64,000 bases of DNA, from assembly GCA_964626665.1 (NCBI GenBank), contig CAZVGK010000010.1, positions 22,850 through 86,849 on the forward strand. The letters run 5' to 3'. The position numbers were made by a program, and so were the translations under genes. Each line of letters begins with the position of its first letter. Within the stretch, counting starts at the first letter, position 1. The stretch is from an uncultured Gemmatimonadota bacterium (GTDB taxonomy: Bacteria; SM23-81; DAOVCL01). This document shows positions 7,332 through 64,000 of this stretch, in pieces. The notes beneath the pieces were generated by a model. The model was given only the letters and a program-made list of their open reading frames with translations, did not search any database and was not told the DNA's origin.

Positions 7332-7356
7332 CTTTGTGGATATATATATTCCCAGA

Positions 7357-7510
7357 GTAACAGTTCACCACGGACTCTCACGGAATGGACCACCAGCAAT
7401 GGTCAATTAGCAATTAACAATTAGCAAGTTAAAATGAAATAAAGCCAGAAAATCTGAGGTGTAAAGTTCCATTGATAATTGTCAATTGTTAATTGGTCAT
7501 TTCGTATCTG
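7357..7510. repeat. Composite repeat element (AACAGTTCACCACGGA end plus inverted CAATTAR heptamer arrays), copy 1
   Basis: ~150 bp homologous to 9151-9330. Confidence 0.8.
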
Positions 7511-7520
7511 CTCAGGGTTA

Positions 7521-8354
7521 TCAGCTCTGAATTTTATGCAGATAATCCCAGAGAACCATACTCAAACGGGAGAAATCCTCCAGGCTGAGAACCTCCCCCC
7601 TCAGGGAAGGGTCAATCCCGGCCCGGGAGAAGACCTCATCCTCCTTCCCCGGGGGAAGGAGCTCCTTTAAAGCATTTTTGATAGTTTTTCTCCTCTTTCC
7701 AAATGCCCCCTTGACTAACTTCCTGAAGAAGAGCTCATCTGGAAGGGGAACGGCTGGTTTTTCCCGCACCATTAACCTTAAGACAGTAGCTTCCACTTTG
7801 GGCCTGGGCCGGAAGGAGGAAGGGGAGAGGTCAAACAGCTTAGTGGGGCGGAAGTATAGTTGGGAGATAACCGATAGGGAGCTATAGTCCTTCCCTCCCG
7901 GAGGTGAAGTAACCCTCTTGGCCACTTCCTTCTGTAGGGTTAAGACAATTTGCTTGATCCTCTCCCTCTGAGTAATCAGCTTCTCTATAACCGGAGAGGT
8001 AAGATGATAGGGTATGTTTCCCACAAGCTTCAGATTTCTCCCCCAAGGGGAGAGATCAAATTTTAAGAAGTCCTCACAGAAGATGAGAAGCTTCTCAGAC
8101 TTTAGGTATTCCTCGAGGATCTGATAGAGACGATGGTCTATCTCTACCCCGATCACCTGAGCTCCATACTTAAGGAGTTCTCTGGTGAGGAGACCACTCC
8201 CCGGTCCGATCTCCACTACCACATCCTGGGGGACAAGTTGCAGGTTTTGCGCAATTTTTTGGGCGGCTGCCCGGTTGATGAGGAAATTCTGGCCTAAACT
8301 CCTTTTGGGGAGAAACCTTAGTCCCAGTGAGGGGAGCAGAATTCCCCTCCTCAT
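7521..8354 (-). CDS. rsmA: 16S rRNA m6,6A dimethyltransferase
   Basis: 'KRSLGQNFL', 'VEIGPGSG', 'VGNIPYHLT', 'LQKEVA', 'RRKT'. Confidence 0.97.
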   Translation of the reverse strand: MRRGILLPSLGLRFLPKRSLGQNFLINRAAAQKIAQNLQLVPQDVVVEIGPGSGLLTRELLKYGAQVIGVEIDHRLYQILEEYLKSEKLLIFCEDFLKFDLSPWGRNLKLVGNIPYHLTSPVIEKLITQRERIKQIVLTLQKEVAKRVTSPPGGKDYSSLSVISQLYFRPTKLFDLSPSSFRPRPKVEATVLRLMVREKPAVPLPDELFFRKLVKGAFGKRRKTIKNALKELLPPGKEDEVFSRAGIDPSLRGEVLSLEDFSRLSMVLWDYLHKIQS

Positions 8355-48602: not shown

Positions 48603-50455
48603 TGGGACGAACAGAGTAGATGACATCTCAACCCTTGAGCCAGGAGTTTGCCTGGCCGGGGTTCCTGTGCAGTTATTATCCCCTCTCCCTTTACCTCTAT
48701 CCGCAGATTGTGGCCAGAGAGCAGGGAGAGTGCCCTCCTTAAACTCATCCCTCGGAGATCAGGCATCAGCCTAGAGGGGGTGGGGGAGAGGGTCAGCTTA
48801 ACCTTTGTCCCCTTGTGAACCAGACTACCCGGAGCCGGGGTTTGGGAGGTGATGGTTTGGCCTGTTCCCTCTTTCTTCCCTATAAGTACCCTCCTCCCAA
48901 GGATCTCCCTACCCTGAGAGATGCTTAAGTTCTGCAGGTTGGGGACTACCACATAGGAGTAGGTTTTGTCCTCCCCTTGGATGATGTGCCTCTCTGGTAG
49001 CCCTTCCCGGGAGAGTATCCTCTCCATTATCCGGCGGAAGACCGGCGCTGCTCCCTTGCTGCCTGGGCGATCCCGTTTGGGTTCATCCAAAACCACCAGG
49101 CCGGCCCATTTGGGCTTTGCCGCGGGAAGATAACCGACAAAGGAGGAAATTAAATTGCCCTGTGAATATCCTCCCTTATCCGGGTCAGGCTTCTGAGCGG
49201 TCCCTGTCTTCCCTGCCACTCTTATCCCCTCTATCTTAGCCCCTTTTCCGGTTCCCCTCTCCACCACGCCAACAAGGAGGTTGGTGATCAGATGGGCAGT
49301 AGAGGGGGAGATGGCCCGCCGAATGGGGGAGGGGGGATACTCCCTGATTGGCTTTCCCTCTTGGTTGAGGATAGCCTTAAGGAAGTGGGGTTGCATAAGG
49401 AGGCCGTCGTTGGCCACACAAGAATAAGCGTTGAGCAACTGCAGGGGGGTGACAGAGACCTCCTGCCCTATGGATATTGAGGCCAAGGAGAGGCCAGACC
49501 ACTCCTCTGGAGGTTTCAAGGTTCCTTTAGGTTCTCCAGGGAAGTCAACTCCTGTGGGCGAGCCGAAGCCCAAAGAACGGGCATATCTGTAAAGATTGTC
49601 CCTACCCACCTTCTTGGCCACCTTTATCACCCCTACATTGCTTGATTTCTCGATTACCTTTCTGAAGGTCAGCCAGCCGAATTTTCCGTTATCCCTAATA
49701 GGAATGCCGAAAATCTTTATGGATCCGTTTTCGCACCAAATCGAATCCGTGGGTGATATTATCCTCTCCTCCAAGGCCGCTGCCATCATGATTAACTTAA
49801 AGGTGGATCCTGGCTCAAATTGATCGGTTATCGCCCTGTTTCGTCTCTGTGGAGGTTTGGATCTTCGAGGGAGGTTGGGGTCATATGAGGGGAGGTTGGC
49901 AATAGCCAATATATCGCCTGTGGCCGGAGAGATGATGATGGCCGATCCCCCTTTGGCCCCTGTCCTCTCCACTCCCCTCTCCAATTCCTCCTGACAGATG
50001 CGTTGGTAGTCCGCATCAATGGTTAAGCAAAGGTTTTCTCCTCCCTGGGAAGGGGTGGGCAGGCCAGGGGGGGAGAATCTGTTCCCTTTCGCATCGGTGA
50101 GCAAGACCAGCCCAGGGCCATCCCCTCTCAGGTATTGGTCATAATAGAGCTCCTCTCCCTCCATTCCCTCATCGTCGAGGTTGGAAAAGCCTACCACATG
50201 GCAGAGGGAGGGCCCTAAGGGATACCATCTTCCCTGATCAAGGTTGGTGGCCAGGAGGTGAAAGTTCCTGTCGAATATCTTTCCCCTTTCCCCTCCTTCC
50301 CTCAGCCTGATTACCTGCTGACAGAGGGCCTTACTTAGATATTTGTGATGATGCAGGATCTGGATGGAAAAGAGGGTAGAGAGGAGGAATAGCCATAATG
50401 CCCCCCCCATTGCTCCCAAGATGATCAACCTTTTTTTATGCTGTTTGCCGAGCAT
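48599..50455 (-). CDS. ftsI: Division penicillin-binding protein (PBP3) with two PASTA domains
   Basis: STFK, SSN and KTG motifs; 'VPNL' and 'MPDL' PASTA repeats; start at ATG 50455. Confidence 0.95.
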   Translation of the reverse strand: MLGKQHKKRLIILGAMGGALWLFLLSTLFSIQILHHHKYLSKALCQQVIRLREGGERGKIFDRNFHLLATNLDQGRWYPLGPSLCHVVGFSNLDDEGMEGEELYYDQYLRGDGPGLVLLTDAKGNRFSPPGLPTPSQGGENLCLTIDADYQRICQEELERGVERTGAKGGSAIIISPATGDILAIANLPSYDPNLPRRSKPPQRRNRAITDQFEPGSTFKLIMMAAALEERIISPTDSIWCENGSIKIFGIPIRDNGKFGWLTFRKVIEKSSNVGVIKVAKKVGRDNLYRYARSLGFGSPTGVDFPGEPKGTLKPPEEWSGLSLASISIGQEVSVTPLQLLNAYSCVANDGLLMQPHFLKAILNQEGKPIREYPPSPIRRAISPSTAHLITNLLVGVVERGTGKGAKIEGIRVAGKTGTAQKPDPDKGGYSQGNLISSFVGYLPAAKPKWAGLVVLDEPKRDRPGSKGAAPVFRRIMERILSREGLPERHIIQGEDKTYSYVVVPNLQNLSISQGREILGRRVLIGKKEGTGQTITSQTPAPGSLVHKGTKVKLTLSPTPSRLMPDLRGMSLRRALSLLSGHNLRIEVKGEGIITAQEPRPGKLLAQGLRCHLLCSSQ

Positions 50456-50520
50456 CTTCCTTCTTGGACATTGTGCCCCCTTAAAATGGTATGATTGAGG
50501 GGCCTTCCACAATCTTTGCT

Positions 50521-50811
50521 AACATAGTGCAGCAAAGCCGCAACCAAAGAATCATCGTGTCGTTATCGTAGCTCGTTACTCGTTCCCCCTGAACCCTACG
50601 CTTCTACCCCCGCTAAAGCGGGGGGTAACTTCTTCTGGGCTTTAGCCCGTTAACCGCGCTGAAGTAAGGTAGAAATGTTTTACTCATCACCCCCCGAAAA
50701 AACTTTGCACAAAACTCGTTACTCATGAAGTCCTCGATGTTTAGGCTTTTTCGTCATTTGAAATTAGGATTTCGTCATTAACTTAAGACCCGCGCTAAAG
50801 TGCGGTAGAAG
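50521..50811. repeat. Nested repeat cluster between ftsL and ftsI
   Basis: GCAAAGCCGCAACCAAA...AAAACTTTGC frame with CTTCTAC/GTAGAA hairpin units and TCGT heptamers. Confidence 0.7.
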
Positions 50812-50907
50812 TCTGTTCCTCAAGGTGGCCCGAGAATTTTTGTAAAAGAGCAAAAGCAGTGGAGGGACGGAATCTATCCCCTGCAAGCCATAGATGACCT
50901 TTAAGAC

Positions 50908-51228
50908 TTATCTGCTTTTCTTGTTGGCCGTTCCCCTTTGCCCCTCCTTTGAGGGAGAGCTGATCAAGAAGGTGACATTTTTTGGGGGGGGATAGGAAAA
51001 CCCCCACCCTTGAGCTATTTTCTCCAACCTTTGTGGATGGGATAGTTGAACCCATCTAATCAAGAGCTGTTTGTTCTTCTCCTCTATTTGTTTCCTGGTC
51101 TCTTTCAAAGAGTGAATCCTTTGGCTGAGCTGGGTGATGTAAAGCTTCTGCCAGAGATGGGCTAGGACCAGAAGAGTTATGATGAAAAGGGCGAAAATAA
51201 ACCCCCTTCCTCCTTTGCTCCCCTTCAT
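50908..51228 (-). CDS. ftsL: Cell division protein FtsL
   Basis: TM helix, coiled coil, 'LSHPQRLEKIA'; position between rsmH and ftsI. Confidence 0.9.
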   Translation of the reverse strand: MKGSKGGRGFIFALFIITLLVLAHLWQKLYITQLSQRIHSLKETRKQIEEKNKQLLIRWVQLSHPQRLEKIAQGWGFSYPPPKNVTFLISSPSKEGQRGTANKKSR

Positions 51229-52115
51229 AATTTGTTCGGTGGGTTTTTCTCTATCCCCCTTAGCTTCGCTCCCCTGGCCCGGGGGTTAGCCTTGATCTCC
51301 TCGGGAGAGGGGCGGATTACCTTTCTGGTCAGTATCTTTCCCTGTGGTAATCCTTTGAAGGTTTCCTTTACCATTCTGTCTTCCAGAGAATGATAGGAGA
51401 TGGCACAGATCCTTCCCTCTACTTTAAGGATCTTCCAAGCCTTTTTTAGGCCATTCCTTAACTGATTGAGCTCGTCATTGACCTCTATTCTTATTGCCTG
51501 GAAGCTGCGGGAGAGTCCTTTTATCCTGTGGGGGGGAGGGAAAATAGGCGCTATAATGCTGGCCAATTGCCTGGTTGAGGAAATCCTCTTTCTCCTTCTC
51601 TCTTGGTCTATCCTCCGAGCTATCCTTTTGGCCCTTGGTTCCTCCCCATATTCCCTGAGGAGGAGGGCAAGTTTTTCCTGGGAATATTCGTTGATCACTT
51701 CTTCGGCGGTTACCCCTGCTGTTTGGTCTATTCTCATATCCAGAGGGCCATCAATTAGGTAGCTAAATCCCCTATGAGGAGAGTTGATCTGGTGCCAGGA
51801 AAGGCCTAAGTCAAAGAGAAATCCCTGGAAGCTTACTTCCTTAACCATTTGGGGAAGCCTCTCCAGTTGCCCAAACCTAAGCTGCAGAAGGGTTAGCCTG
51901 GAGGAGTATCCTCGTAACGCCTGATGGGAGTAATTGAGGGCCTCTTGGTCGGCGTCAATTCCGATTAGCCTCCCTTTGGTTTGCTTCAAAATCCCTCGGG
52001 CATGGCCGCCACCACCTATGGTGCAATCTACATAGGTTCCTCTCTTATCGGTTAAGAGGAGATCCAGAACCTCATCCTGGAGAACAGGCTGGTGATAAGT
52101 GGCGGTTTCATCCAC
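51225..52115 (-). CDS. rsmH: 16S rRNA m4C1402 methyltransferase
   Basis: 'HQPVL', 'DCTIGGGGH', 'GPLDMR', 'FQAIRIEVN', 'SYHSLEDR'; GTG start overlaps the mraZ stop. Confidence 0.98.
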   Translation of the reverse strand: MDETATYHQPVLQDEVLDLLLTDKRGTYVDCTIGGGGHARGILKQTKGRLIGIDADQEALNYSHQALRGYSSRLTLLQLRFGQLERLPQMVKEVSFQGFLFDLGLSWHQINSPHRGFSYLIDGPLDMRIDQTAGVTAEEVINEYSQEKLALLLREYGEEPRAKRIARRIDQERRRKRISSTRQLASIIAPIFPPPHRIKGLSRSFQAIRIEVNDELNQLRNGLKKAWKILKVEGRICAISYHSLEDRMVKETFKGLPQGKILTRKVIRPSPEEIKANPRARGAKLRGIEKNPPNKL

Positions 52116-52590
52116 CTTGAGCAGGGTTTTTAGCAATATTTATGGCTTGAAAGAATGTATGGTCCATCTCCTTTTCCACCTGGTTCCTGTTGTCCGTCTT
52201 ATTTCTTGCATCTTTTCTCACCTCAGGATCCCATATCTCAATCCTTGCTCCCACCCCTATCAAGAGGACATCTTTGTTAAGTTTACCCATCTCAATGAGT
52301 CCCTTGCTCAGGCTTGTTCTTCCCTGCCTATCATACTTTGATTCGATCATGAACTCGTTTAGGTAGCTTTTCAGTTCGCTATTTTCTAAATTCTCTGGTA
52401 TGGCTTCAAAGCTTTCCTCAATTTTTATCCACTCGTCTAAGGGGTAGGCATACAGACATCCCCTGGTTCCGCGGGTAATAACAAATGTTTCCTCTGCCTC
52501 TGGGGAAATGTTCCTTCTGAATTTGGCCGGAATGATTATCCTTCCCTTCTCGTCAAGTTTGGATTCGCTTCTTCCTCTAAATCTGGACAT
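52108..52590 (-). CDS. mraZ: Transcriptional regulator MraZ
   Basis: 'LDEKGRIIIPAKFR', 'DRQGR', 'IEIWD'; start at ATG 52590. Confidence 0.96.
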   Translation of the reverse strand: MSRFRGRSESKLDEKGRIIIPAKFRRNISPEAEETFVITRGTRGCLYAYPLDEWIKIEESFEAIPENLENSELKSYLNEFMIESKYDRQGRTSLSKGLIEMGKLNKDVLLIGVGARIEIWDPEVRKDARNKTDNRNQVEKEMDHTFFQAINIAKNPAQGG

Positions 52591-52597
52591 AAAAAAT

Positions 52598-52668
52598 TCC
52601 CCCTTTTTTTCCACAATACACCACTCTTCACCACAGGCTATATTACAACTACCATTCTCCCCTGTCAA
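52598..52668 (-). promoter_or_regulatory. dcw promoter and MraZ operator
   Basis: TTGACA-17-TAATAT, followed by GTGG boxes at 10-bp spacing (52611, 52621, 52631). Confidence 0.85.
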
Positions 52669-53574
52669 GGGGAAAATCAGATTTTTTTCAGAAATTTCCC
52701 TTTATGCCCGATCCATTCATAAACTAATAGTAACCTGCTGAAATTTAGTATCTTATGGATAATCCTGTAGGGACAAACCAAACGCTCCTTGTGGATGTTA
52801 TCATCCACAAGGAGCTGGGAGGCATCTCCCCTGGGCGGAGCCTCGGGCAAGCCTGATGCCAATCATTATCGAGGTCCGGAGACCTCTCCCACATTTAACC
52901 CCAAATTCAAAAAGGCCAGCTCCCCTCTCGAGGATACTGGCCTTTATTAGGTATTCCTTACACTTCCTCCCTTCCCTGGCAGGAGGGTAGTTGCAACCTC
53001 GTAGGTTGCGAAAACACGCAGACTGAAGTCTGCGGCTACCTCAAAAGTACCATCTTACGGATAGCGGTGAACTCCTTGGCCTCAAGGACTTTTGTATGGT
53101 CGGATTCATCCGGCCCGCTTTACGAGTTTGATAGGTCGAATCCATACATTAGTTTTATCTGAGAGGTTAGTCTTAGCCTAGACCATACCAGGTTTAAGGG
53201 GAGAGCCGGGTTGCAAAGAATCGTTGGGTGCGATCAAAGGTAAGCCAGTTTTTTTGTTTAAGGACCATCACATACAAGGATTGAGAAGGAACAACAGGGA
53301 TTGAAAGGCAACTTAAGAGAGGGGTGGTTCTCCCTCCTTATGGCTTTCTGTGTGAGTTTAAGGTCCACTGGGCTGAAAAATCAGGGCCAAAGACCCGTTG
53401 GGGGAAAGGGATAAATCCTAATGATAACCCAACATTGGCTTTTTAGATAGATTAGGTAGAGAGGAAGGGGCACGATATCACTGGTCATATCAATGAGGTC
53501 AGGCTGAAAAGTAGAAAGTAAGGACACAGATTAAGGCAAGCCCAAAATGCTTGACACTTTCTGCCCCACCGTAC

Positions 53575-53811
53575 CTTATTTCCGAGATGGCAGTTGGCCG
53601 TTGGCGTTCATGGCTCAGGTCTCCAACATCTCCGGAGGGTTGGTGAAGACCTTGGTGGATGAGGACTAACCGCCTGGGTTATATGCTGTTAGGTGGGATG
53701 GTAAGAGCTCGCACGGCAAAATGTGGGGAGCGGGTTCTATTTTTGTAGGTTACAAGTGATAGGTGACAGGTTAGAGGTAAAGAAGCGAAGGAAGTAGTGC
53801 TGTTGAGATAG
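53575..53811 (+). pseudogene. Degenerate FlgD/T9SS-A-like C-terminal domain
   Basis: DNA similarity to 56700-56899 (TGGGATGGTAAG...TCTATTTTTGTAGGTTA...GTGATAGGTGA) with stops and an indel. Confidence 0.75.
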
Positions 53812-54202
53812 AATTCGCTTTATTCCTAGGTCGTTTTATGCGGCCTTCAGTGGGTTTGTAAATTGGTGTCTCCATTTTCTGAGCGACTGAGCCGTATGTC
53901 GGGGACCAACCTTTGGTTCATTGGCTCAAGAGCAGAATTGAGCACCCCGGGCAGCGAAACTGGCCGTACGGGGTGCAATCATATTTGGAGGGATATTGAA
54001 CTTGACATCTGGGCAAGAAAATGGTAGATTTGAAGATAAAGAAGGGCAAAATTTTTCATAAGAGCCAATATCCAGCTCACCAAGGGAGGTGTTTAAAATA
54101 AAAAAGTTTCGAAGCGTCCCAAAAAGTTGACATATCTTGGGGGGGGACCGTTCCGAGGTTGTGTGATTCTCATTTTTGATGCAAAGCATCAGTAGTAGTG
54201 CT

Positions 54203-54288
54203 TGTGGGAATGTGGATAACTGCTTTGCAGTTATCCAAGTGGTTGTGGGAAAGTACGATACTTTTCCACAACCACGGCATTTCCACAA
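54203..54288. repeat. Palindromic GTGGGAATGTGGATAAC...CATTTCCAC element
   Basis: Nested stems GGATAACTGC/GCAGTTATCC and GTGGTTGTGG.AAAG/CTTT.CCACAACCAC. Confidence 0.6.
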
Positions 54289-54457
54289 GGTGAAGATCTT
54301 CAGGATCAGCGGCCATAGTCCCATTATCCAACTTTGCGACAAACTCTAGAGTGGTATGTCAACTTTCTGGGACGCTTCCAAAAGTTTAATAGCTTCGTGA
54401 CCGTTTCCCTCTTTTTTTTTAGGGATCTTTTTCTTCACCAGCCTTGTCGTAGCCCAG

Positions 54458-56899
54458 ATGATCGCCGATATCACCGAGGATGTGGAGACGGAGTTCGGCA
54501 CCTATCATCCCCAGATAGTGGAGGTCACGCCTGTGGCCCACCACTATGTCATAGAACCGGGGTTTGCCAATGTAGTGAATTTTGCCGATTTCAGCTTTTC
54601 AGCGGTCGAGGAATCTCTTCTGCTGAAGAATGCCTTCGTGGCTAAACCCTCAAGCTATATGGAAGTCTATGACATCTACAATGAGTGCACTGAAATGGGA
54701 ACCCCTATCTTTGTTACCACCGATGCCTTGCTTCATATCTACCACCGGTTTTACGACCGCCTCCTAAGGACTGCCGAGGAGCGCCAGTTTTACGGCGATT
54801 TGACAGAGCTTACCGAGGCACTTTACGAGAATTCGGACTCCCTCTATCAGGCCGCCGGGGATTCTGTGGTCAGAGATGCCTTGCGGCTGAACGTGGCCTA
54901 CCTGGGGGTGGCCCGCGCCCTCATAGATAGCCAATATCAACCACCGGCCTACATACAGGACTTGGTCAGTGCCGAATCCGACCTGATTGAAACCCACGAG
55001 GGTTTCTCCTATTCACCCATCTTTTGCTACTCGGAAGACTATAGCCAATATCTGCCCAGAGGTCATTACACTCGATCGGATTCGCTCAGATCATACTTCC
55101 AGGCGATGATGTGGCTGGGGAGGATGACCTTCATTATCGAAAGTCCACCCTTTCCGATCCCCTGTGACGTGGACAGCCTCATTCATGAATCCACCAGGAA
55201 GGCCATCCTGTTGGTTTATTCCCTGCAGAACACAACCGTGGGGGGTGAACCTGCCCTGGATGTTTGGGAGAGAATCTACCTTCCGACTGTATTTTTTGTG
55301 GGGAGGACAGATGACCTAAACATCTACCAATACCTCCCGATTATGAAGCAAATATACGGTGAGGGCTTTGCCTCCCTCCCGGTAGATACCTTTGCCGACG
55401 ACTCCTTGGTAAACCAGTTTCTGGACTCTGCCAGGGAGCTTCCTGACCCAAGGATCCCCACAAGGGCGGCAAAGGGGTTTAGGCTTATGGGACAGAGGTT
55501 CATTCCCGATTCCTATATCCTCTCTCAGTTGACCACAAAAGTGGACCGACCTATGCCTAAGGGGTTGGATGTGATGTCTGTCCTGGGATCGGAAAGGGCC
55601 TACGGGATTATGGATAGTATATACCATGAGCCCGATTGTTATCCGCTCTATGCCCCGGTAATGGATTCGCTCAAGGCCGAGTTCGCTGCCCTTCCGGACG
55701 CAACTTGGGCGCAGGATCTCTACTACAACTGGCTATATTCCCTTATGCCCCTGCTCTTTGCCAAAGGCGGTGGTTATCCCACCTTTATGCGGAATCAGGC
55801 CTGGACCGACAGGGAGCTCTATGCGGCCCTTGGTTCATGGACTGAACTGAGGCATGACACCATCCTCTACGGCAAGCAGAGCCTTTACGAGGGGGCGTAC
55901 CGGAGGTATGAGTTTAACTGTTATGTTGAGCCGAACCCCTATCTCTTTGCCAGACTGGCCTCTCTGGTGAATCTGATGGGACAGGGATTAGATGAACTTG
56001 GTTTGCTATTTGATGACTTTGGAGAGAGGCTCTCAGACTTAGAGCTTCTTCTTCTTTGCCTGAAAGCAATGGCCGAAAAGGAGTTGGTCAATCAGACCCT
56101 GACCACCGAGGAGTATGAACTCTTGGCCAATATAGGGGTAATTCTGGAGAGCTTGGTCGATTTCGGTCAACCCTATCCAATGCGCATCACAGCAGGGCCA
56201 CACTACTCGGATGATGATCAGATGCCTCTGGTGGCCGATGTGCACACCTATGGAGAAGGGGAACAATGCCTGGAAGAAGGCATTGGATATCCGTTCAACC
56301 TCTTTGTGATCGTGGAGATCAATGGAGAGCTCAAGGTCACCAGGGGAGCTGGATTCTCCTATTTCGAGTTCATCCAGCCTATCTCCGAGAGGTTGACCGA
56401 TGAGGCCTGGAGGGAGATTCTCCAAACGGATTCTCCAGATCCACTGGTTTGGTCGGCAAGTTTTGTCGATTTAGACCAGGGTTTCACCGTCCCCTCCCCC
56501 ATCCACTACCCCTTGTCTGACAACCATCTCATCCCTGACATCGATACCACTGGTATAGTGGAAGATAACGGCCAAGGATCAACGCTTCCCCTTAGCTTTG
56601 AGATATACCAGAACTACCCCAACCCATTTAATGCTAATACCGTTATTCGTTATTCGATTCCAGATAGGGATAGAGAAATGAGCCTGCACCACACCACCCT
56701 CAAGATCTACAACATAACAGGCCAGGAGGTGAGGACCCTGGTTGCTGGGAATCAACTACCGGGACTGCATACAGTTATCTGGGATGGTAAGGGTGCGCAC
56801 GGCCAAGATGTGGGGAACGGGGTCTATTTTTGTAGGTTAGAGGTGATAGGTGATGGGTTGAAGGTTGAAAGAACAAGGAAGATGGTCTTGTTGCGGTAA
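54458..56899 (+). CDS. DUF3160-family protein with FlgD/T9SS-A-like C-terminal domain; N-terminus apparently disrupted
   Basis: 'PIFVTTD..LH.YH', 'DYSQY.PRGHYT', 'YFQAMMW.GR', 'FRLMGQRF..DS', 'SWTELRHDTILY.KQS', 'YVEPNP'. Confidence 0.88.
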   Translation: MIADITEDVETEFGTYHPQIVEVTPVAHHYVIEPGFANVVNFADFSFSAVEESLLLKNAFVAKPSSYMEVYDIYNECTEMGTPIFVTTDALLHIYHRFYDRLLRTAEERQFYGDLTELTEALYENSDSLYQAAGDSVVRDALRLNVAYLGVARALIDSQYQPPAYIQDLVSAESDLIETHEGFSYSPIFCYSEDYSQYLPRGHYTRSDSLRSYFQAMMWLGRMTFIIESPPFPIPCDVDSLIHESTRKAILLVYSLQNTTVGGEPALDVWERIYLPTVFFVGRTDDLNIYQYLPIMKQIYGEGFASLPVDTFADDSLVNQFLDSARELPDPRIPTRAAKGFRLMGQRFIPDSYILSQLTTKVDRPMPKGLDVMSVLGSERAYGIMDSIYHEPDCYPLYAPVMDSLKAEFAALPDATWAQDLYYNWLYSLMPLLFAKGGGYPTFMRNQAWTDRELYAALGSWTELRHDTILYGKQSLYEGAYRRYEFNCYVEPNPYLFARLASLVNLMGQGLDELGLLFDDFGERLSDLELLLLCLKAMAEKELVNQTLTTEEYELLANIGVILESLVDFGQPYPMRITAGPHYSDDDQMPLVADVHTYGEGEQCLEEGIGYPFNLFVIVEINGELKVTRGAGFSYFEFIQPISERLTDEAWREILQTDSPDPLVWSASFVDLDQGFTVPSPIHYPLSDNHLIPDIDTTGIVEDNGQGSTLPLSFEIYQNYPNPFNANTVIRYSIPDRDREMSLHHTTLKIYNITGQEVRTLVAGNQLPGLHTVIWDGKGAHGQDVGNGVYFCRLEVIGDGLKVERTRKMVLLR

Positions 56900-56926
56900 G
56901 GACAACAGCGGATCTCTGATTATAGG

Positions 56927-56968
56927 CAAAAGAGGGGAGGCGAAAACAAGTTTCACCTCCCCTCTTTG
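56927..56968. terminator. Bidirectional intrinsic terminator
   Basis: AAAAGAGGGGAGGCGAAA-ACAAG-TTTCACCTCCCCTCTTT between convergent genes. Confidence 0.8.
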
Positions 56969-57024
56969 TATCTTTGGAGAGTGGGCGATATCCCCATTCC
57001 CTCAGGATGACCTAAACGTTCAAG

Positions 57025-57285
57025 CTAAAGGGAAGCTTTCCTTATCAGATTTTCGATGAAGAGGCGACTTTTCTTTGCTTTGATTTCCCTTTCCCTTTTT
57101 ACTGCTTCTTTCCGGCTACTATATTCCTCCAGATAAACTAAATGCCATGGACCTTGACCCTTTGTGAACTTAGAGCGGTTCTGGTTATGCCACCTCAAGC
57201 GGTCTTCAGGGTGGGAGATCTGCCCTACGTAGAATCTAGCGGTCTTTTCACTCTGGAGGATATAAAGATAAAAGCTTGTGCCCAT
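57025..57285 (-). CDS. Stand-alone GIY-YIG nuclease
   Basis: 'FYLYIL......FYVG', 'RLRWHN', 'EAVKREREIK'; ATG lies 8 nt after tRNA-Val. Confidence 0.9.
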   Translation of the reverse strand: MGTSFYLYILQSEKTARFYVGQISHPEDRLRWHNQNRSKFTKGQGPWHLVYLEEYSSRKEAVKREREIKAKKSRLFIENLIRKASL

Positions 57286-57293
57286 TAGGGAAG

Positions 57294-57367
57294 TGGGCGA
57301 TACTGGATTTGAACCAGTGACCTCTTGCATGTCAAGCAAGCACTCTAACCATCTGAGCTAATCGCCC
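57294..57367 (-). tRNA. tRNA-Val(GAC)
   Basis: GGGCGATTAGCTCAG...CTTGC-TTGACAT-GCAAG...GGTTCAAATCC...ATCGCCCA; CCA not encoded. Confidence 0.97.
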
Positions 57368-57842
57368 TCTTGGAACAGCCTCCAGTGGTCAGTTTCCAGA
57401 GGTCAGGGAAAATCCGTGACAACCGACAAACATCTAACTGCTGATCCCTGACTGTCATGAGAGGGAAGAGCAATGGAGCTGAGGCCCAGACTCCGCCGCC
57501 CTCGGTCAATAGCCTCCTACATTCTTAATTTTACATTCGAGCTTCGCTCGTCTCTCAATATGCAAGGATTTTGCTAAAAACGGCAACGAGCTTCAACCAT
57601 TGGAGGAGATTAAGATCTAGGTTGACAGTTTGGATGTTTGTAACTTGTTTAAAATCAACGATTTTGCTGGGCGATATGAAAAGCCGCGCCTTTGGCATAA
57701 TAATTGCAAATTGTCTATCTTTGAAGACGGCCTCCGCACAAAGCTTACCACCCCCAGATTCCCTGCTGCATCAGGCGCTACTGTGGACTAGCCCCTATCG
57801 TTTGAGTCCAAACTACGCCTGGTCACCAGCAGGGAATTTTTT

Positions 57843-57929
57843 TGCCGAGGGCCGGGCTCGAACCGGCACGTCCAAAAATGGACAGCGGATTTTAAGTCCG
57901 CTGCGTCTACCAAATTCCGCCACCCCGGC
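57843..57929 (-). tRNA. tRNA-Leu(TAA)
   Basis: GCCGGGGTGGCGGAA...GCGGA-CTTAAAA-TCCGC, long variable arm, GGTTCGAGCCC; CCA not encoded. Confidence 0.97.
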
Positions 57930-58004
57930 CTATTATAATTTCAACGATTTAGTCCATCTCTTCTTCACTATCAGAATTGCTACTGCCCATTTTCTGCCCA
58001 TAAA

Positions 58005-58244
58005 TTAGGTCTCCATTGTCGCCCTTTTAAATCTCTTCTCAAACTTCCGCACTGCTTCTGCCTTGTGACTGTGACTGAGGTGAGCGTATCTTAGCGTCAT
58101 CCTATAGGTCTGGTGTCTCATAAATTCCCTCACATTGGCAAGACCTACCTCGGACATAATCAGATGGCGGTTGAAGGTATGTCACAAGGAATGAAAAGTG
58201 CAGTGCTTAGTACCCCTTTTCTCAAGAGCCTTAGCAAGATTTTT
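58005..58244 (-). pseudogene. Tyrosine recombinase (phage-integrase type) C-terminal remnant
   Basis: Hand translation ...TFHSL*HTFNRHLIMSEVGLANVREFMRHQTYRMTLRYAHLS...; the HxLR Arg codon is TGA at 58182-58184. Confidence 0.85.
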
Positions 58245-58454
58245 GGGGACACCATACTAATTTATGTTTTTGGCTTTCTGCCCGGTTTTTTGTAGCTGCA
58301 TAGTCTTCATCTAAGAAGAGGGTTTGCTGCCTTCTGTTGCCCCGTTGCGTAATATGGCGGGGTAAGCCCGGCGCAAGGCCCCTTGCTATTCTTGCCATAT
58401 GGGTTAATTTAGTTGTGTGCCATGTTTATGTCAAGAAATAAGTATGGTGTCCCC
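58245..58454 (-). mobile_element. Internally deleted RAYT (Y1 HUH transposase) element with terminal inverted repeats
   Basis: GGGGACACCATACTAATTT / AAATAAGTATGGTGTCCCC ends. Interior reads MARIAR..APGLPRHITQR/GNRRQQTLFLDEDY (two frameshifts), then KKPGRKPKT*. Confidence 0.8.
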
Positions 58455-58527
58455 GGAATTCCCCCGGAATTCTCCCCCATCATTATATTCGTGTTCAATT
58501 CAAATTGTCCATATCCGCTCCTTTCGA

Positions 58528-59967
58528 TCACGCAACCAAAAGGAAATACCGCACGGGTATTAAAAGAATATCATCTTCTAAGCTTATGTCGTGCTCGCGA
58601 GTCAATATGACTCCGAGCGGACTCCCGGATTTCTTCATAAAGTGCTTTAGTCCTCTTTTCTGGAGATTCTTTTGGCGATACTTGACTTCGATTGGTAGAT
58701 ACTTGCTGGCAGCATGTGTAACAATGAAGTCAACCTCGACCTGCCGTTTCCGGTAATAAGCCACCTCAAGAGCTCCTGGCCAGCTAACGAGATGGTTCGC
58801 AACGATATTCTCGATATACAATCCCAAAAGACCATGATCAGTAGCAAAATCGTCCCATGTTTTCATGACCGCGTTGCGTAGGGCCAAATCTATGAGATAA
58901 CATTTTACGTTTCCCTGCCGCGGGCGGATTGGATCACGTCTGAACTTCTGCACACGCATAATCAAATCGGTCATCTCAAGAAGGGGAAAGTTGTCAGAGA
59001 CCATCTTGCGACTGACACCAGCCTCCGATGCAATCTTTTGGGCATTGATCTCTATACCCGGATGTGCCAGCAAGTACACAAAGAATCTCAGTACGTTCTC
59101 CGGCTTGCGATATTCTGTCGCCAGCGCCAAATCCTCGTAAAGGACCTTTCTTACCTGATTGTCCCACAGATACTCTTGCTTCAGAATTACATCTTCGAAT
59201 TGCCACGTTTCTGGGAATCCGCCCTCACGGCAGAAGTTAAGCACAGCCTTGTCCAATCCCTGCTTAAAATCGCGTATATCTCGGTCGAACCTTTTCATCC
59301 GATTGCAAACAGCATTGCCGTTGCTATCCAGTAGCAGCGTGCGGATATCCATATAGTTCCTCAATACGTCCGAGAAAGTTGGCTCATTTAGAAATTGATA
59401 CAGACAAAACTCACGAAACGAAAAGGGCAGCAAATGGTAATCTTTGATTCGTCCAAGAAGGCTCTCCTGCGTTTTTCGGAAAATCGGTGACGAAGCGCTT
59501 CCAGAAATGAGAAACCGGATCGGATATTTCAGGTCGTAGTACTTCTTGAGGAAAAGCTCCCACCGTGGAAGCTTCTGGATTTCGTCCAACAGAAAGAAGC
59601 GTTCTTGGGCCTTGAGCGGATCGCCGCTCACCGCCTCTACCATCCGGTCTAATATCCGCTCTTGGAGTTCCGGCGAGGAGACAACCGCAGGATCATCAAA
59701 GGAAAAATATGTGATCTGCTTTGGTGATACTCTTTCCTCGTCGATCAGGTGGCAAACCAACTGGTGAAGGAGAGTGGTTTTACCGACGCGACGCGGGCCG
59801 GTGATCGATATAATCTGGGGAACCAATTCAAGGTCCGACCGGAGCTGTTTTAGGATAGGACGCTCGAACGCAGGCAACTTACTGCGCCAAGTTCCTTCTG
59901 GCTCCGAATGCCAGGGATTGTATGGATTCAGTAGCCTTGCCAGGTCTAAATCATCTATGTTCATCAC
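58528..59967 (-). CDS. AAA ATPase with DUF4143 / PD-(D/E)xK C-terminal domain
   Basis: 'NPW', Walker A 'GPRRVGKTT', Walker B 'LLDEIQ', 'GGFPE', 'EVDFI....PIEVKY'. Confidence 0.92.
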   Translation of the reverse strand: MMNIDDLDLARLLNPYNPWHSEPEGTWRSKLPAFERPILKQLRSDLELVPQIISITGPRRVGKTTLLHQLVCHLIDEERVSPKQITYFSFDDPAVVSSPELQERILDRMVEAVSGDPLKAQERFFLLDEIQKLPRWELFLKKYYDLKYPIRFLISGSASSPIFRKTQESLLGRIKDYHLLPFSFREFCLYQFLNEPTFSDVLRNYMDIRTLLLDSNGNAVCNRMKRFDRDIRDFKQGLDKAVLNFCREGGFPETWQFEDVILKQEYLWDNQVRKVLYEDLALATEYRKPENVLRFFVYLLAHPGIEINAQKIASEAGVSRKMVSDNFPLLEMTDLIMRVQKFRRDPIRPRQGNVKCYLIDLALRNAVMKTWDDFATDHGLLGLYIENIVANHLVSWPGALEVAYYRKRQVEVDFIVTHAASKYLPIEVKYRQKNLQKRGLKHFMKKSGSPLGVILTREHDISLEDDILLIPVRYFLLVA

Positions 59968-60220
59968 AAGTTCTTATCACGCAGGACAATACAATTAAAT
60001 TCCAGATATGGTCATTATGAGTACCATATTTTGAGAAATGTCATAATTAACGATATTCATCCGACTTATCCCTGTTCAAACAATGTTCCTTCATCCTTCA
60101 CAACTACCCCCCCCAAATGCCTATCCCCTCCCCCGCCTGCGGATGGTGGGCGGGTTTTGGACAAGGTGGTTATGGGGTCGGGTTAGTTCAAGGATGAAGG
60201 TATCTATGCATTTTGGTGTA

Positions 60221-60293
60221 GCCTAATGCTCCACATAACCGGCTGGCAATGGAGCGCAGCTGAATCCCCGTCCAGTGCAGCGCGTTGTTAAGC
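60221..60293 (-). other. Integron attC site (degenerate R')
   Basis: GCTTAAC-AACGCGCTGCACTGGACGGGGATTC...-ATTAGGC; R'' overlaps the TIGR02391 stop codon. Confidence 0.75.
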
Positions 60294-61100
60294 ACCTGTT
60301 TTCACTGCCTCGTCAAGTCTTCGATGCAACAGAGACGCAACGGTCATCATGTCGAGAGCGTCGTGCTCGGTTATATTCCATGCAATCCGTGGTGCGTGTG
60401 CTGGTGGATTGCGGAAGGTACCGAAGAAGCCTTTCATTAAGTTCATGAGTCTCTTGTGTTCGCTTCGCTCGGAGTCTGTCGAGAGTGGGTTGAAAGCAAG
60501 AACTGGATATTGCTTCTTGCCGATTCCGAAGGCTTCATCAACAAGGTTACCTCCATCGGATGTAAACCCTGTCTTGTCTCTTATCTTTTGAGCAACGCTC
60601 TTAGCTGCCTCGAGCACGGCATGGAAGTAGTTGCCCTCAACAAGCTCAGCACGGCAGAACTTAAGAACATCAGGGTGAACGCCACGGTCGAAGAGCTTGC
60701 GACGGAGCTGATCCGCTGCAGCCTTAGCGTCTGATATCGTCCGTGCTTGTTTGCACCGCTCAAGTTTCCCTTCGTCATTCAGTTTGAACGCTTCGAAGGC
60801 GAGAACACGGTTTAGTTCAGCTTGCTTGCCTTCAAAGTATCCGGGCGACTGAACATGCAGAACAGGGTTCATGACACGCTGTATGAAACCACAGACGTTA
60901 TTAGCACAACCGTCCGCACGTTGCCTTGTGACGAGTGCTTCGTACAACCGGATGCGCTTTGTCATTCCGGGATTCGGATCATCAATCCCACATTCCCGCA
61001 GATATCTGCCGATCTCACTTCCCGTCAATCCGGTGTTCGTGTCTCCCAAGACATTGCACACCTGTTCAAGATTAGCTTCGTTGAACAATGGTATCTTCAT
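60288..61100 (-). CDS. TIGR02391-family protein, cassette-borne
   Basis: 'GLTGSEI', 'VHPDVLKFCRAEL...NYFHAVLEAAKS', 'FRNPPAH'; ATG follows GTTAGGC by 7 nt. Confidence 0.88.
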   Translation of the reverse strand: MKIPLFNEANLEQVCNVLGDTNTGLTGSEIGRYLRECGIDDPNPGMTKRIRLYEALVTRQRADGCANNVCGFIQRVMNPVLHVQSPGYFEGKQAELNRVLAFEAFKLNDEGKLERCKQARTISDAKAAADQLRRKLFDRGVHPDVLKFCRAELVEGNYFHAVLEAAKSVAQKIRDKTGFTSDGGNLVDEAFGIGKKQYPVLAFNPLSTDSERSEHKRLMNLMKGFFGTFRNPPAHAPRIAWNITEHDALDMMTVASLLHRRLDEAVKTGA

Positions 61101-61107
61101 TTATCTC

Positions 61108-61181
61108 GCCTAACGGTGCTGGTGAGAGGCTGGCATGGAGCGCCAGCGTAATGCCAGTCCTACTCCACCAGCTGGTTATCT
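61108..61181 (-). other. Integron attC site
   Basis: AGATAAC-CAGCTGGTGGAGTAGGACTGGCAT...ATGCCAGCCTCTCACCAGCACC-GTTAGGC, imperfect palindrome. Confidence 0.88.
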
Positions 61182-61210
61182 GCTAATTTTCATGGCCAAT
61201 AATTCGCCAC

Positions 61211-62155
61211 TTAATTCTCATCCTCGAATATTCTAGGATACAAGGAAAGCCACAATTCATTAGGGTTTGGCTCAATCAAACGAAGAACCTTTCGTTCTCT
61301 GAGTGCGTTTGATTCTTTTATCTTGGCTCGCCATACAACTGGTCTGTCAAGCAATGCAGAGAGAAAACTCTTTTCATTTGATTTTAATGTTCCTTGGAAC
61401 CACTGAAAGGCTTGCGACCAGTCCTCAATTAATTCTCTTAGTTCGTCGTTGCTCAATCTAAAGAGATAAAGAAATTGGTCTATCAATCCAGATTCATCAA
61501 GAGAATCCCGAAATTCCTCCATTGTTTGATTGGGCGACTTTCCGCGAAGAACCGGCTCTGGAAATGGGTTACATGACCGTCTGACTGGTTCATAGGATTG
61601 AAAAAAGGCTTTCCAGATTTTTGACAATGTAACGGTCGATGTTGTAAAGATAACAGAGGCAATAATGCTTGCGGCTATCGCATCAAAATTCGAACTAAAC
61701 CACTCGAAAGGCCACCAAGCTTTGACCCCTCCTCCGTCAACTAATGAACCATCAATTCTTCTGCCTTCCGCATACCAATTAATCAATGATGCCTTTGCTT
61801 TATATATTCTGTTATCATTGTCAGAACCGAGACATAGCAAAAGACAATAAACAAACAGAGCTGATTTTCCACCAAACTTTATATAATGCTCTTCAAATCT
61901 TGAGATTGCTGATTCAATTTTGTCTTCAATTGTAGCTCTAAATCTATGATCTTCCTCTAAAAGTGACATAATCTTAGAATAAGCATCTTCTTGAGAAAGA
62001 TTACTAATGTGTGGAGCTATACTTAAGATTAATCGATTTGCAGCACCTCTTCTTGCACTATGATCAACTTCTACTGGAGGCGAAGAGCTATTCCAAAAAT
62101 AATCAACAACTCCGTCCGCTAAAACCGAAATATCTAAATCCGCCTTTTTGCTCAT
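61211..62155 (-). CDS. Hypothetical cassette protein, AT-rich, possible TM segment
   Basis: 314-aa ORF bounded by GTTATCT (62194) and AGATAAC (61181). Confidence 0.75.
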   Translation of the reverse strand: MSKKADLDISVLADGVVDYFWNSSSPPVEVDHSARRGAANRLILSIAPHISNLSQEDAYSKIMSLLEEDHRFRATIEDKIESAISRFEEHYIKFGGKSALFVYCLLLCLGSDNDNRIYKAKASLINWYAEGRRIDGSLVDGGGVKAWWPFEWFSSNFDAIAASIIASVIFTTSTVTLSKIWKAFFQSYEPVRRSCNPFPEPVLRGKSPNQTMEEFRDSLDESGLIDQFLYLFRLSNDELRELIEDWSQAFQWFQGTLKSNEKSFLSALLDRPVVWRAKIKESNALRERKVLRLIEPNPNELWLSLYPRIFEDEN

Positions 62156-62466
62156 ATCTCTTAGCCTCGATGTTTATTTGAAACTACAGATAACTATCGC
62201 TTATGTTAGTCGCATAAGGACCTTATCGATGACGACATTTGTTGCATAACGGGGAGCGGGATAACCCCTCCCTCGGTTGGCTCTGCCATAGGCGGCCCGA
62301 CTTATGATTAGCCTACCTAGAGACCGTATAAATCAGCAGAATATCCAATATCTTAAGTCAAACCCCCTCGGCAAATGCGTCCCCCCTCACTCGCCTGCGG
62401 AAGGTGGGCGAGGTGGTTATGGGTTCGGGTTAGTTTAAGAAAGAAATTGCTAATTCATTCTATGAG

Positions 62467-62538
62467 GCGTAACAACAGGATTACTTGCGGCTATGAAGCG
62501 GCAGCGGGATAGCCGTCCACTGCATCCATTTGTTGGGA
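62467..62538 (-). other. Integron attC site
   Basis: TCCCAAC-AAATGGATGCAGTGGACGGCTAT...ATAGCCGCAAGTAATCCTGTT-GTTACGC. Confidence 0.85.
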
Positions 62539-62574
62539 GATCGATTCATCGGCATCGATGACACATAGAGGTGG

Positions 62575-63054
62575 TCAAGAGAAATACCGTCGGTGGAGTT
62601 CCTCACCGTCAAGTAGTTCCTTGAACTTCGCGAAATCGCTGTTGCACATATCCAAGACGATACACCAGTCCGCCCTCGGCGTCCACTTCGAGCTTCCCAT
62701 TCTCTGCTCGACAAAGAATCTGATTGCCTCAGCCATGCTTTGCCCTGTTGTCTCGCTGTCGCTCCTACGCCACCGCTCCTCGAAACCGTGGCCAACCTCG
62801 TGAGCGATGGCTCTGGCCTGGTGAAGATCAGGGTTCATGTCAACATGACCTTGGGACTCGCTCTCTCCAGTCCACACAGTGAACTCCCCTTTTCCGAGCA
62901 CAACCCGACTTATGCGCTTGTAGGGATGTCCCGCTTTTTCAAGGTCGTCGAGGACTTGATACGAGGTTTTGATCGCGCGGTGGAGTTCCTGAAGCCACTG
63001 GGCCGGGACCTCTTTCCCGCTCTCGTTGACGATGTCGGGCCTATTGATGGTCAT
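62575..63054 (-). CDS. Cassette protein with HEXXH zincin-like motif
   Basis: 'AIAHEVGHGFEE' and downstream 'SMAEAI'; ATG 63054 after GAGGAG. Confidence 0.7.
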   Translation of the reverse strand: MTINRPDIVNESGKEVPAQWLQELHRAIKTSYQVLDDLEKAGHPYKRISRVVLGKGEFTVWTGESESQGHVDMNPDLHQARAIAHEVGHGFEERWRRSDSETTGQSMAEAIRFFVEQRMGSSKWTPRADWCIVLDMCNSDFAKFKELLDGEELHRRYFS

Positions 63055-63076
63055 CTTCTCCTCTCGCAACTCTCCC

Positions 63077-63958
63077 CTATATTAGTCGCATAAGAACCTT
63101 ATAGCCATGTTCTCGATTTACCTCTTTTACGGTTTTGATATTTTTGCTCCACATTGAAAAGCCGCTAAAAAAGATTTTTATTTGGTTTGAAAAAGGTAAT
63201 GTCGAAAGCGATTCTAAATTTAATAGCGAGCTGTAAGGATTATAGTCTACCAAAATCAATATGAATTGGAATAGGTTAAGATCATTAGAAACTTTTAAAG
63301 TCTTCATAGCCTCAAGGCGATTTGGGTCTTGCATGTAAATCCCTAATTGCAGTTTTTGTCGGAACATTGTTTCGAGTTCCTGAGATAGCCTTGCCATATT
63401 TTTCTGAATTTGCTCATAATACCTTAATAACTGCTTGTGTGCTTCTCTTATATCTGTATTAAGAGCAAACTTTACTTCCATTAAACACGGCATTATTGTT
63501 TGGTTCTTTCTTCTTAGATTTCTGTCCCAGTAGACACCCAATAAATCAAATCGTTCATTATCTATAGCATATTGTCTGTCCACAATAAAATATTCGCTAT
63601 TATTTCTTTTCTCTTGGTTATTTGCTCGGATAATCAATTGCTCATATTCCACTTCTAAAGAAGATTTTTTATTTTTGAGAATGTTATCTTTGATAATAGG
63701 AACAGCCTTCAGAAATAGATCAGTATCAACCCTATTCTTAATGAAATTAGGAATATTAGTACCCAATAGGAATTTTTGATGGATATCTACTTTGTATTGA
63801 AAATTTGGAGCTTCGGAAAGTTTTAAAAGGGAATTCCCTTTGAAATATATGTTCAGATAATTATCTCGAATCTGTAAATCGAGATCCTTATCATTGATGA
63901 CTTCCTGAGTTATGGGGGACAAAAATCCATTCTTGAGACTATCTACAGACCTCGTCAA
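63077..63958 (-). CDS. Hypothetical PD-(D/E)xK-like nuclease
   Basis: 'LQIRDNYLNIYFKG', 'EYEQ', 'RFDLLG', 'LMEVKF', 'HKQL..Y'; start uncertain. Confidence 0.65.
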   Translation of the reverse strand: MTRSVDSLKNGFLSPITQEVINDKDLDLQIRDNYLNIYFKGNSLLKLSEAPNFQYKVDIHQKFLLGTNIPNFIKNRVDTDLFLKAVPIIKDNILKNKKSSLEVEYEQLIIRANNQEKRNNSEYFIVDRQYAIDNERFDLLGVYWDRNLRRKNQTIMPCLMEVKFALNTDIREAHKQLLRYYEQIQKNMARLSQELETMFRQKLQLGIYMQDPNRLEAMKTLKVSNDLNLFQFILILVDYNPYSSLLNLESLSTLPFSNQIKIFFSGFSMWSKNIKTVKEVNREHGYKVLMRLI

Positions 63959-64000
63959 ATTAGCTCAAAATTGTGCCACTTTTTTGGACACTTTGCTGAT

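Follow-up and report, generated by a model that had tools for sequence, protein, structure and literature searches.

The textbook integron has a single attI site, and only the head of its array captures and expresses cassettes. One attI per integron is also the rule in the co-oriented ("inverted integrase") chromosomal integrons, e.g., that of Treponema denticola, and clusters of attC sites lacking integron-integrases (CALINs) are defined by attC alone, as two or more neighboring attC sites in whose vicinity there is no integron integrase. Here we examine an array on the minus strand at positions 60107–63102 of a 64-kb stretch of contig C10 (hereafter the window) from the genome of an uncultured Gemmatimonadota bacterium (G000; GCA_964626665.1), within which a motif that we read as part of an attI site recurs. 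The idea of attI sites away from the array head is not wholly new, as internal attI and delta-attI sites are known in integrons of classes 1 and 2 (PMC12901181). According to the available text of that study (Gonzales Machuca et al., Sci Rep 2026), the delta-attI ("unusual") cassettes of class 1 and 2 mobile integrons carry internal attI sequences of eight truncation types, the complete 65-bp attI1 or a 244-nt attI2 segment, the constructs tested were excised and inserted with IntI1, and 110 cassettes of this type were counted in 1,742 integrons, beside a working IntI. A review describes cassettes in Treponema that lack an open reading frame (ORF) and carry a promoter (PMC8876359).

The initial annotation of the window had proposed two tandem mini-integrons without an integrase, each headed by an attI-like motif. 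We conclude that 60107–63102 is probably the distal part of a chromosomal integron-type array in which this motif is part of an attI site, and that the array is probably a chain of attI-headed sub-arrays.

Anatomy of the array

The anatomy of the locus was established by repeat searches, alignment and attC modeling. As first annotated, a 35-nt motif occurs twice on the minus strand, at 63102–63068 and 62226–62192, with 30 of 35 positions identical (86%, repeat family D4). Its 17-nt core, CTTATGCGACTAAYATA, has exactly two occurrences in the window at up to two mismatches, where none is expected (100 shuffles). Both copies end in GTT, and the bases beyond match the far end of the next cassette, so that the complementary cassette ends reported earlier are present for cassette 1 with one mismatch (GTTGCGAGA, 63070–63062, and TCTCCCAAC, 62540–62532) and for cassette 2 without any (GTTATCT, 62194–62188, and AGATAAC, 61181–61175). 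The three attC sites lie where they had been placed, as the best three minus-strand matches of a covariance model, and the ~110-nt element (E) shared by the two units after their attC sites was recovered as repeat families D1 and D2, 80–85% identical at ~62363–62472 and ~60107–60226. One correction is required: the similarity of the unit 2 motif to other copies extends upstream to 62250, giving a 59-nt site, and unit 1 keeps only a 35-nt stump that overlaps the stop codon (TAG, 63079–63077) of the ORF at 63958–63077. Unit 1 holds one cassette and unit 2 holds two. The contig ends at window position 64000 and cuts the array there, and two units is therefore a minimum count. The features of the array, all on the minus strand, are as follows.

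63077–63958, minus strand: ORF of 293 aa from the ORF list, ending inside the short attI-type copy and without an attC of its own
63068–63102, minus strand: short attI-type stump of 35 nt, from the repeat search and alignment; G at 63070, crossover read as G|TT
62575–63054, minus strand: cassette 1 gene, 159 aa from ATG, from the ORF list
62467–62538, minus strand: attC of cassette 1 (attC_a), R'' TCCCAAC and R' GTTACGC, G at 62473, matched by model R1
62363–62472, minus strand: element E1, from repeat families D1 and D2; nhmmer profile match with E 2.5e-24
62251–62362, minus strand: pre-attI stretch (P) of type B, opening with TTTGACTTAAGATATTGGATATTCTGCTGA and common to contig C16 and metagenome loci
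62192–62250, minus strand: full attI-type site of 59 nt, GTTATGCAAC...CTTATGCGACTAACATAAGCGATAG|TT, from alignment with the copies on contigs C2 and C16 and the conservation profile
61211–62155, minus strand: cassette 2 gene, 314 aa, from the ORF list
61108–61181, minus strand: attC of cassette 2 (attC_b), a long hairpin of canonical form, its R'' being AGATAAC and its R' GTTAGGC
60288–61100, minus strand: cassette 3 gene, 270 aa, Hypoth_Ymh family (PF09509, 136.4 bits)
60221–60293, minus strand: attC of cassette 3 (attC_c), matched by model R1
60107–60226, minus strand: element E2, the terminal copy; nhmmer match with E 9e-31

The attC sites of the window are real and co-oriented with the motif. 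They were identified with a covariance model (R1) built from 11 aligned attC sites of related arrays, i.e., hairpins bounded by YAAC...GTTR, and run without filters over window positions 40000–64000. The site attC_b, itself one of the seeds of the model, scored 45.7 bits, attC_a 17.4 bits (E 0.037) and attC_c 15 bits (E 0.14). The single-strand DNA fold of attC_b is strong (-18 kcal/mol, z -3.59, equaled by 0 of 200 shuffles), that of attC_a is moderate (z -1.41) and pairs AAC with GTT, and that of attC_c is weak (z -0.40); the 3' end of attC_c is also ambiguous, with R' being either GTTATGT (60239–60233) or ATTAGGC (60227–60221). All three are imperfect palindromes bounded by AAC and GTT with complementary cassette starts, two of the three folds being weak. 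Across the whole genome R1 returned 27 attC matches at E≤0.01 on 18 contigs, and across 25 related sources it returned 33 (11 of them the seeds of the model), all co-oriented with the attI of their locus. A fold-based attC scan found nothing when run without forced end pairs and, in its forced version, found only attC_b in the window.

The full 59-nt site is composed of two direct TTATGCGAC boxes and a CTTATG/CATAAG hairpin, followed by 5 nt and then G|TT. A BLAST search of the genome with the motif identified three further copies, two on C2 and one on C16; in alignment four of the five genomic copies share ~60 nt, and the unit 1 copy shares only the last 35 nt. The motif had no match in reference genome contigs, and among the 40 relatives searched it was found in neither of two same-genus genomes and in none of four same-phylum genomes. 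A single match with one mismatch, in the genome G008, was rejected as being at chance level by our estimate. A dispersed repeat of G000, TAGGGGTCGCATTTATGCGACCCGAAC...GGGCTTGATAAATCAAGCC, is present at ~30 places on many contigs (e.g., C3:146012, C6:13828, and C25:35375), and within its palindrome is the 9-mer of the attI boxes (TTATGCGAC), which may be coincidence.

A profile search for E returned 33 copies, of which 26 were non-redundant. Copies of E start directly after the GTTA of an attC R', and in 12 of 24 the end of an attC detected by the model falls no more than 5 nt from the start of E; E1 itself starts at the TT of the R' of the cassette 1 attC and ends in a G-run. An attI-like core lies within 230 nt downstream of 18 of the 26 non-redundant copies. 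In the remaining copies E is followed by a flank resembling the start of P and then by divergence, and E2 of the window, which continues with TAGTTGTGAAGG..., is of this kind by flank comparison. E and P together form a conserved non-coding module of ~240–290 nt, whose first bases fall exactly at the G|TT of the attC before it. On related contigs the repeating order is E, attI, 604–2990 nt, E and attI, with units made up of element, pre-attI stretch, attI, one to three cassettes and attC.

Several possible identities for E and P were considered. E is not supported as a structured RNA or DNA: single-sequence folds gave z -0.11 to -0.58, and the consensus fold was -1.7 kcal/mol with one covarying pair of 11, i.e., negligible covariation. 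The fold-based scan flagged two E copies as attC, and model R1 gave no match to E. A reading frame in E is disfavored, with no formal coding test made, by the absence from E1 of 16 alignment columns that the other copies have. Prediction of sigma-70-like promoters on the minus strand found none in the E and P copies of the window; type C copies of P contain a match to TTGGAT-17-TAGTAT, a candidate promoter read by eye. An Rfam scan of 50000–64000 at E≤1 returned two tRNAs and two chance-level matches, with no group II intron and no RNA family over E, P or the motif.

The motif downstream of integrase remnants

The motif is linked to stubs of integron integrases. The copies at C2:182793–182836 and C2:187649–187692 each lie ~140 nt past a C-terminal IntI stub, one of which (C2:187319–187507) corresponds to positions 252–315 of the integron-integrase family TIGR02249 at 64.9 bits; one of the two C2 stubs ends ...TTMIYTHVLNRGAKGIRSPADSL. 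The C2 copies retain ~400 nt, including the 3' end of intI. Further intI stubs in G000 are found on C4, C5, C28, C47, and C59. The sister genome G001 has integrase stubs on three contigs, and past them comes a homologous, diverged region ending ...ATAAGGTTCATTTATGGAAACCATATAAGCCGTAG|TT, with hairpin arms TTATGG/CCATAA in place of the CTTATG/CATAAG of G000, and after the stubs on its contigs C75 and C201 the sequence differs past GTT. For all stubs in G000 and G001 the integrase stubs, sites and downstream cassettes share one direction.

G000 carries additional dead platforms, beta (also the kind found in G001) on C5, C4, and C28 and gamma on C59 and C47, together with a delta platform beside a XerA-like recombinase. 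Read by eye, all four kinds have a last inverted repeat, exactly 5 nt and then GTT. This shared design, which is that of an attC lacking R'', hints that attI may be derived from attC, or may be recognized like attC. The forms of beta at C4:42347–42502 (minus strand) and C28:42374–42487 (plus strand) are short, ..GTTATACGGAAACCATATAA..TAGTT, with the two hairpin boxes of the ~190-nt intI–attI spacer merged as if recombined between the boxes.

The 42-aa C-terminus of the C2 stub has 81–93% identity to the best 120 of 7,998 database matches (E≤1e-5), and therefore cannot identify the cognate enzyme. Among these best 120 of 7,998 matches 76 are shorter than 200 aa and several are on 12–46-kb contigs, and C-terminal integrase stubs look to be common in public metagenomes, judging by these sequence matches.

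The only intact IntI-related recombinase in G000, at C52:470–1558 (minus strand, locus L001), is XerA-like; it scored 238.6 bits on NF040815 (cut-off 220) and 230.6 on TIGR02249, below the cut-off for that family, with the middle of the IntI model unmatched. Approximately 130 nt past this gene are three inverted repeats, then ...CTGCGGATATAAACGAGTT|AGGC and an ORF, and the same ...CTGCGGATATAAACGAGTT|AGGC site follows a recombinase remnant at C25:13709–13858. The C52 locus may be a live atypical integron able to act on G|TTAGGC-type attC sites. A further XerA-like gene, truncated to 199 aa, is found at C2:190469–191141 (locus L004), where an attC found by the model (36.3 bits) stops 5 nt short of it; this recombinase gene is in the position of a cassette gene and is itself cut by a transposase gene (191176–192162).

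Crossover point and diversity of contexts

Beyond the genome, an exact-pattern scan of metagenome contigs produced 29 loci with 36 instances of the motif, five of the loci being the same DNA as G000 contigs. The genome and the 29 metagenome loci together provide 40 instances in 30 distinct contexts, and the downstream sequences of all 30 are different. Information content drops from ~2 bits to ~0.2 bits just past GTT+RRRY and reaches background within 4–5 nt after GTT, and positions -58 to -28, which are outside the search pattern, remain conserved. When the 29 loci were compared with window positions 54001–64000 by BLAST (E≤1e-8), the matches were mainly to the E, P, attI, and attC regions, the others falling on tRNA-Leu, on a repeat around 58.3 kb and on a short segment at about 54.35 kb; excluding the window-identical contigs L024 and L043, there was no match inside any cassette gene.

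The same point of divergence is evident in a comparison with contigs of four salt-marsh sequencing runs, made at 90% likeness and representing whole communities. Eight contigs in run X20 and five in run X21 leave the sequence of the window at 62191, the base after G|TT. Summed contig depth in the bin containing attI and P relative to the adjoining cassette bin was 249.5 vs. 6.55 in X20 and 143.7 vs. 4.1 in X21. This ~35–38-fold depth is the abundance of the family in the source habitat and not a copy number per cell.

Interpretation of the array and alternative explanations

We propose that the array is a member of a family whose intI and cassettes would run in one direction (the "inverted integrase" layout), with attI 3' of intI, and that the 35-nt motif would be the crossover-proximal part of the attI of this family. 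In this lineage attI would not be unique to the head of the array, and internal copies would take three forms: a bare stump, as in unit 1; a site behind an intI stub, as on contig C2; and, most commonly, a site at the end of an E and P module, as in unit 2. Each internal attI would mark a past insertion of cassettes by attI x attC recombination at G|TT, because similarity drops sharply at that point and the cassettes that follow differ, and with past insertion sites of this kind the array would become a chain of attI-headed sub-arrays. The sequences show the anatomy, the association with intI stubs and the variety of contexts; we infer that IntI made these junctions, that the internal sites were, or still are, competent for recombination, and how the modules spread. 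E and P may be a platform from which intI was deleted, which stays a suggestion because the similarity of P to the DNA flanking integrase stubs is weak (z 2.2, with 20 of 500 shuffles as good, and z 3.5, with 4 of 500).

Apart from this weak similarity, several other results weigh against the proposal. The search of the whole of G000 with TIGR02249 (cut-off 265 bits) gave many fragments and no match over the cut-off, and there was none over the cut-off in the two same-genus genomes G001 and G002. Upstream of the nine metagenome copies of the intI-linked kind ("type A") there is no IntI-like ORF in any case. The motif is homologous to sequence 3' of the C2 intI stubs and in no case in G000, G001, G002 or the type A loci does it lie beside an intact intI. 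In the window the sole TIGR02249 match is a 21.7-bit remnant beside tRNA-Leu, in agreement with the initial annotation that no intI is adjacent; the array runs off the contig at 64000, and an intI for it could lie beyond that point. The unit 1 stump has two changes in a hairpin arm and does not fold. Of the 15 intervals from an attI to the next E none is empty and none of the 30 downstream contexts begins with E, such that the search for empty junctions of motif and element was negative. Whole-module copies are at most 86% identical with unrelated flanks, and there is as a consequence no sign of recent movement.

The interpretation in the initial annotation is supported in part. Its attI reading is largely upheld: the motif lies downstream of integrase stubs, is conserved to G|TT and variable thereafter, and is unscored by the attC model. 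It was never seen beside an intact intI. That the motif captures cassettes in trans was found to be unsupported, as the one genome available has no TIGR02249 match over the cut-off and the two same-genus genomes also have none. That it may itself be mobile draws only on its varied contexts; neither an empty unit nor a near-identical copy at two sites was found. As the cognate integrases in G000 are all broken, the locus is probably a fossil unless an integrase is supplied from elsewhere.

The alternative that fares best, which we consider possible though unlikely, is that E, P, and attI constitute a non-autonomous mobile unit that IntI acting in trans excises and re-inserts at attC sites, thereby seeding new sites for capture, and perhaps promoters, along arrays. 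The module has G|TT at both of its ends, the left one falling at the R' of various attC sites, it occurs in many unrelated contexts and it is strongly over-represented in metagenome depth; moreover IntI1 excises and inserts cassettes ended by attI or delta-attI in the systems of classes 1 and 2, according to the available text of PMC12901181. However, no empty site, circular junction or near-identical copies were found, nor was an intact cognate IntI in G000, G001, G002 or the type A metagenome loci. E is always coupled to P, and its left boundary could consequently be ancestral and not a crossover. The contigs that might represent empty attI|E joints have short sides and 90% likeness, and are inseparable from copies belonging to other organisms. 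A related and equally tentative suggestion from these sequences is that the lineage might have reduced its platform to a promoter-sized, integrase-less E–P–attI module (~240–290 nt), cassette-like with attI as its recombination site and inserted at attC, every ~1–3 cassettes, by an integrase acting in trans, which would create many capture-competent, and perhaps expressed, positions in an array.

Less probable again is a reading of the motif as a miniature attC, such that the arrays would contain, besides attC sites of the usual variable sort, a single short family that is very conserved. The hairpin, 5 nt and G|TT do match the L box, spacer and R' of an attC, and three metagenome copies (L019, L027, and L030) keep only AAGGTT and the hairpin, with bases 5' of AAGGTT that pair and covary with those 3' of AGTT (CCGCCCAA/TTGGGCGG, CGCCTAA/TTAGGCA, and GCGGCCTAA/TTAGGCGC, respectively). 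The L019 copy folds as an R box, a 6x6 internal loop, an L box and a 5-nt loop (-12.4 kcal/mol, z -4.23, 0 of 200 shuffles as good). The motif can thus form the center of an attC-like site, but the window's own copies do not do so convincingly: a complementary flank is absent from unit 1 and amounts to just 5 bp in unit 2 (z -1.59). Most copies have a conserved upstream part with the second TTATGCGAC box at the would-be R'', the site comes after intI stubs, and on the cassette strand it is unscored by R1, whose only nearby match (9.7 bits, E 2.4) is on the other strand. The earlier statement that the motif is not attC-like accordingly holds for R1 scoring of the window copies, and not for the hairpin, 5 nt and G|TT design or for the attC-like fold in three metagenome copies; those three may be miniature attC sites, or else simple sites of palindromic form that a 27-nt insert interrupts.

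Duplication of an integron segment by homologous or slipped events, with later decay and no site-specific history, is highly improbable and was already disfavored: the two units are adjacent and share E (80–85% identical) and the motif, in a genome full of decayed integron pieces (27 attC matches on 18 contigs and intI stubs on six), but the cassettes between copies are unrelated in the window and across the 30 distinct, differently filled contexts, the breakpoints are sharp at G|TT, and divergence between copies is as great inside one array as it is from contig to contig; the units are not a simple local duplication.

Other features of the window

The 293-aa ORF at 63958–63077 and the genes of cassettes 1 and 2 had no Pfam family at E≤0.01; by eye the cassette 1 protein contains a HExxH-like AHEVGH motif. 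Past E2 are unrelated genes, namely an AAA_14/DUF4143 ATPase, a transposase-like fragment, an integrase C-terminal remnant and a tRNA-Leu. The transposase-like ORF (MARIARGL...HITQRGNRRQ; 58231–58476) is short and lies between 26-nt inverted repeats (58238–58263 and 58436–58461), and copies of this unit with ~87–90% similarity are present in metagenome loci L025 and L026. The integrase remnant is the C-terminal part of a tyrosine integrase of phage type, and it and the adjacent tRNA-Leu(taa) occupy 58005–58157 and 57843–57929 (both minus strand). A three-unit E/attI array in metagenome locus L041 ends with a full-length integrase and a tRNA-Leu 81% identical to that of the window.

Comparison with known systems

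By the attC-based definition the locus is a CALIN, with three attC sites within 2.4 kb and no IntI over the cut-off in the 64-kb window, and as in other CALINs the integrase is missing nearby, with broken integron integrases elsewhere in G000. The internal attI copies and the E and P module are outside that description. With the Treponema cassettes that lack an ORF, as given in the available text of PMC8876359, the array shares a short non-coding unit starting at the attC crossover, but an attC belonging to E itself is not supported, P always comes after E, and no sigma-70-like promoter was predicted in the window copies.

The direction shared by intI and the cassettes, and the position of attI 3' of intI, are those of the co-oriented integrons. 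A survey of IntI in reference genomes covered 80 loci with 4-kb flanks, 61 of which had an ORF of at least 290 aa, and the taxa returned fit the co-oriented group. In seven of the 80 loci part of the 300 nt after intI is repeated elsewhere in the locus; a second copy of an intI stub and attI inside the array, as occurs here, was seen in only one of the 80 sampled loci (L110). This locus is from a Chlorobiaceae metagenome-assembled genome (MAG) and has an intact intI (360-aa frame) with its site and, 3.2 kb downstream, a second copy that is 77% identical (4234–4410 and 7341–7640); each copy of the intI 3' end and site is followed by different sequence past ...ATATTGTT. In another locus, from a Spirochaetota MAG (L082:5380–6638), four tandem units ~391 nt apart each have the same 85-nt stretch, which is also present 216–300 nt after intI (97.6–100% identical). 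Integrase stubs consisting of the 3' end plus attI were seen in G000, the sister genome G001 and the Chlorobiaceae MAG, and such reduced stubs suggest a regular route of decay or multiplication of co-oriented integrons.

A further likeness is to the delta-attI cassettes, of which the internal attI copies are, in the best-supported reading, the local form. As described in the available text of PMC12901181, an attI or truncated attI replaces attC inside the array, and attI of variable length lies upstream of an unchanged GTTRRRY (14–244 nt there; 35, 59, and ~400 nt here). The ORF at 63958–63077 fits a cassette of this type, as it ends in a 35-nt stump with the crossover core kept and without attC. 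The same text presents the delta-attI cassettes as rare and demonstrates their recombination, whereas here the sites occur every ~1–3 cassettes, in chromosomal arrays of an uncultured lineage, and are usually attached to a conserved E and P module with no intact cognate integrase. A literature search, judged by titles and the openings of abstracts, returned no paper on recurrent attI sites in chromosomal arrays. What looks new is the occurrence of attI every ~1–3 cassettes, its attachment to a ~240-nt module, and an attI made up of a hairpin, 5 nt and G|TT, a design that bears on the relationship between attI and attC. An attI every few cassettes would alter models of cassette capture, expression and array growth, and arrays with recurrent attI would be a natural and abundant counterpart to the rare clinical delta-attI cassettes.

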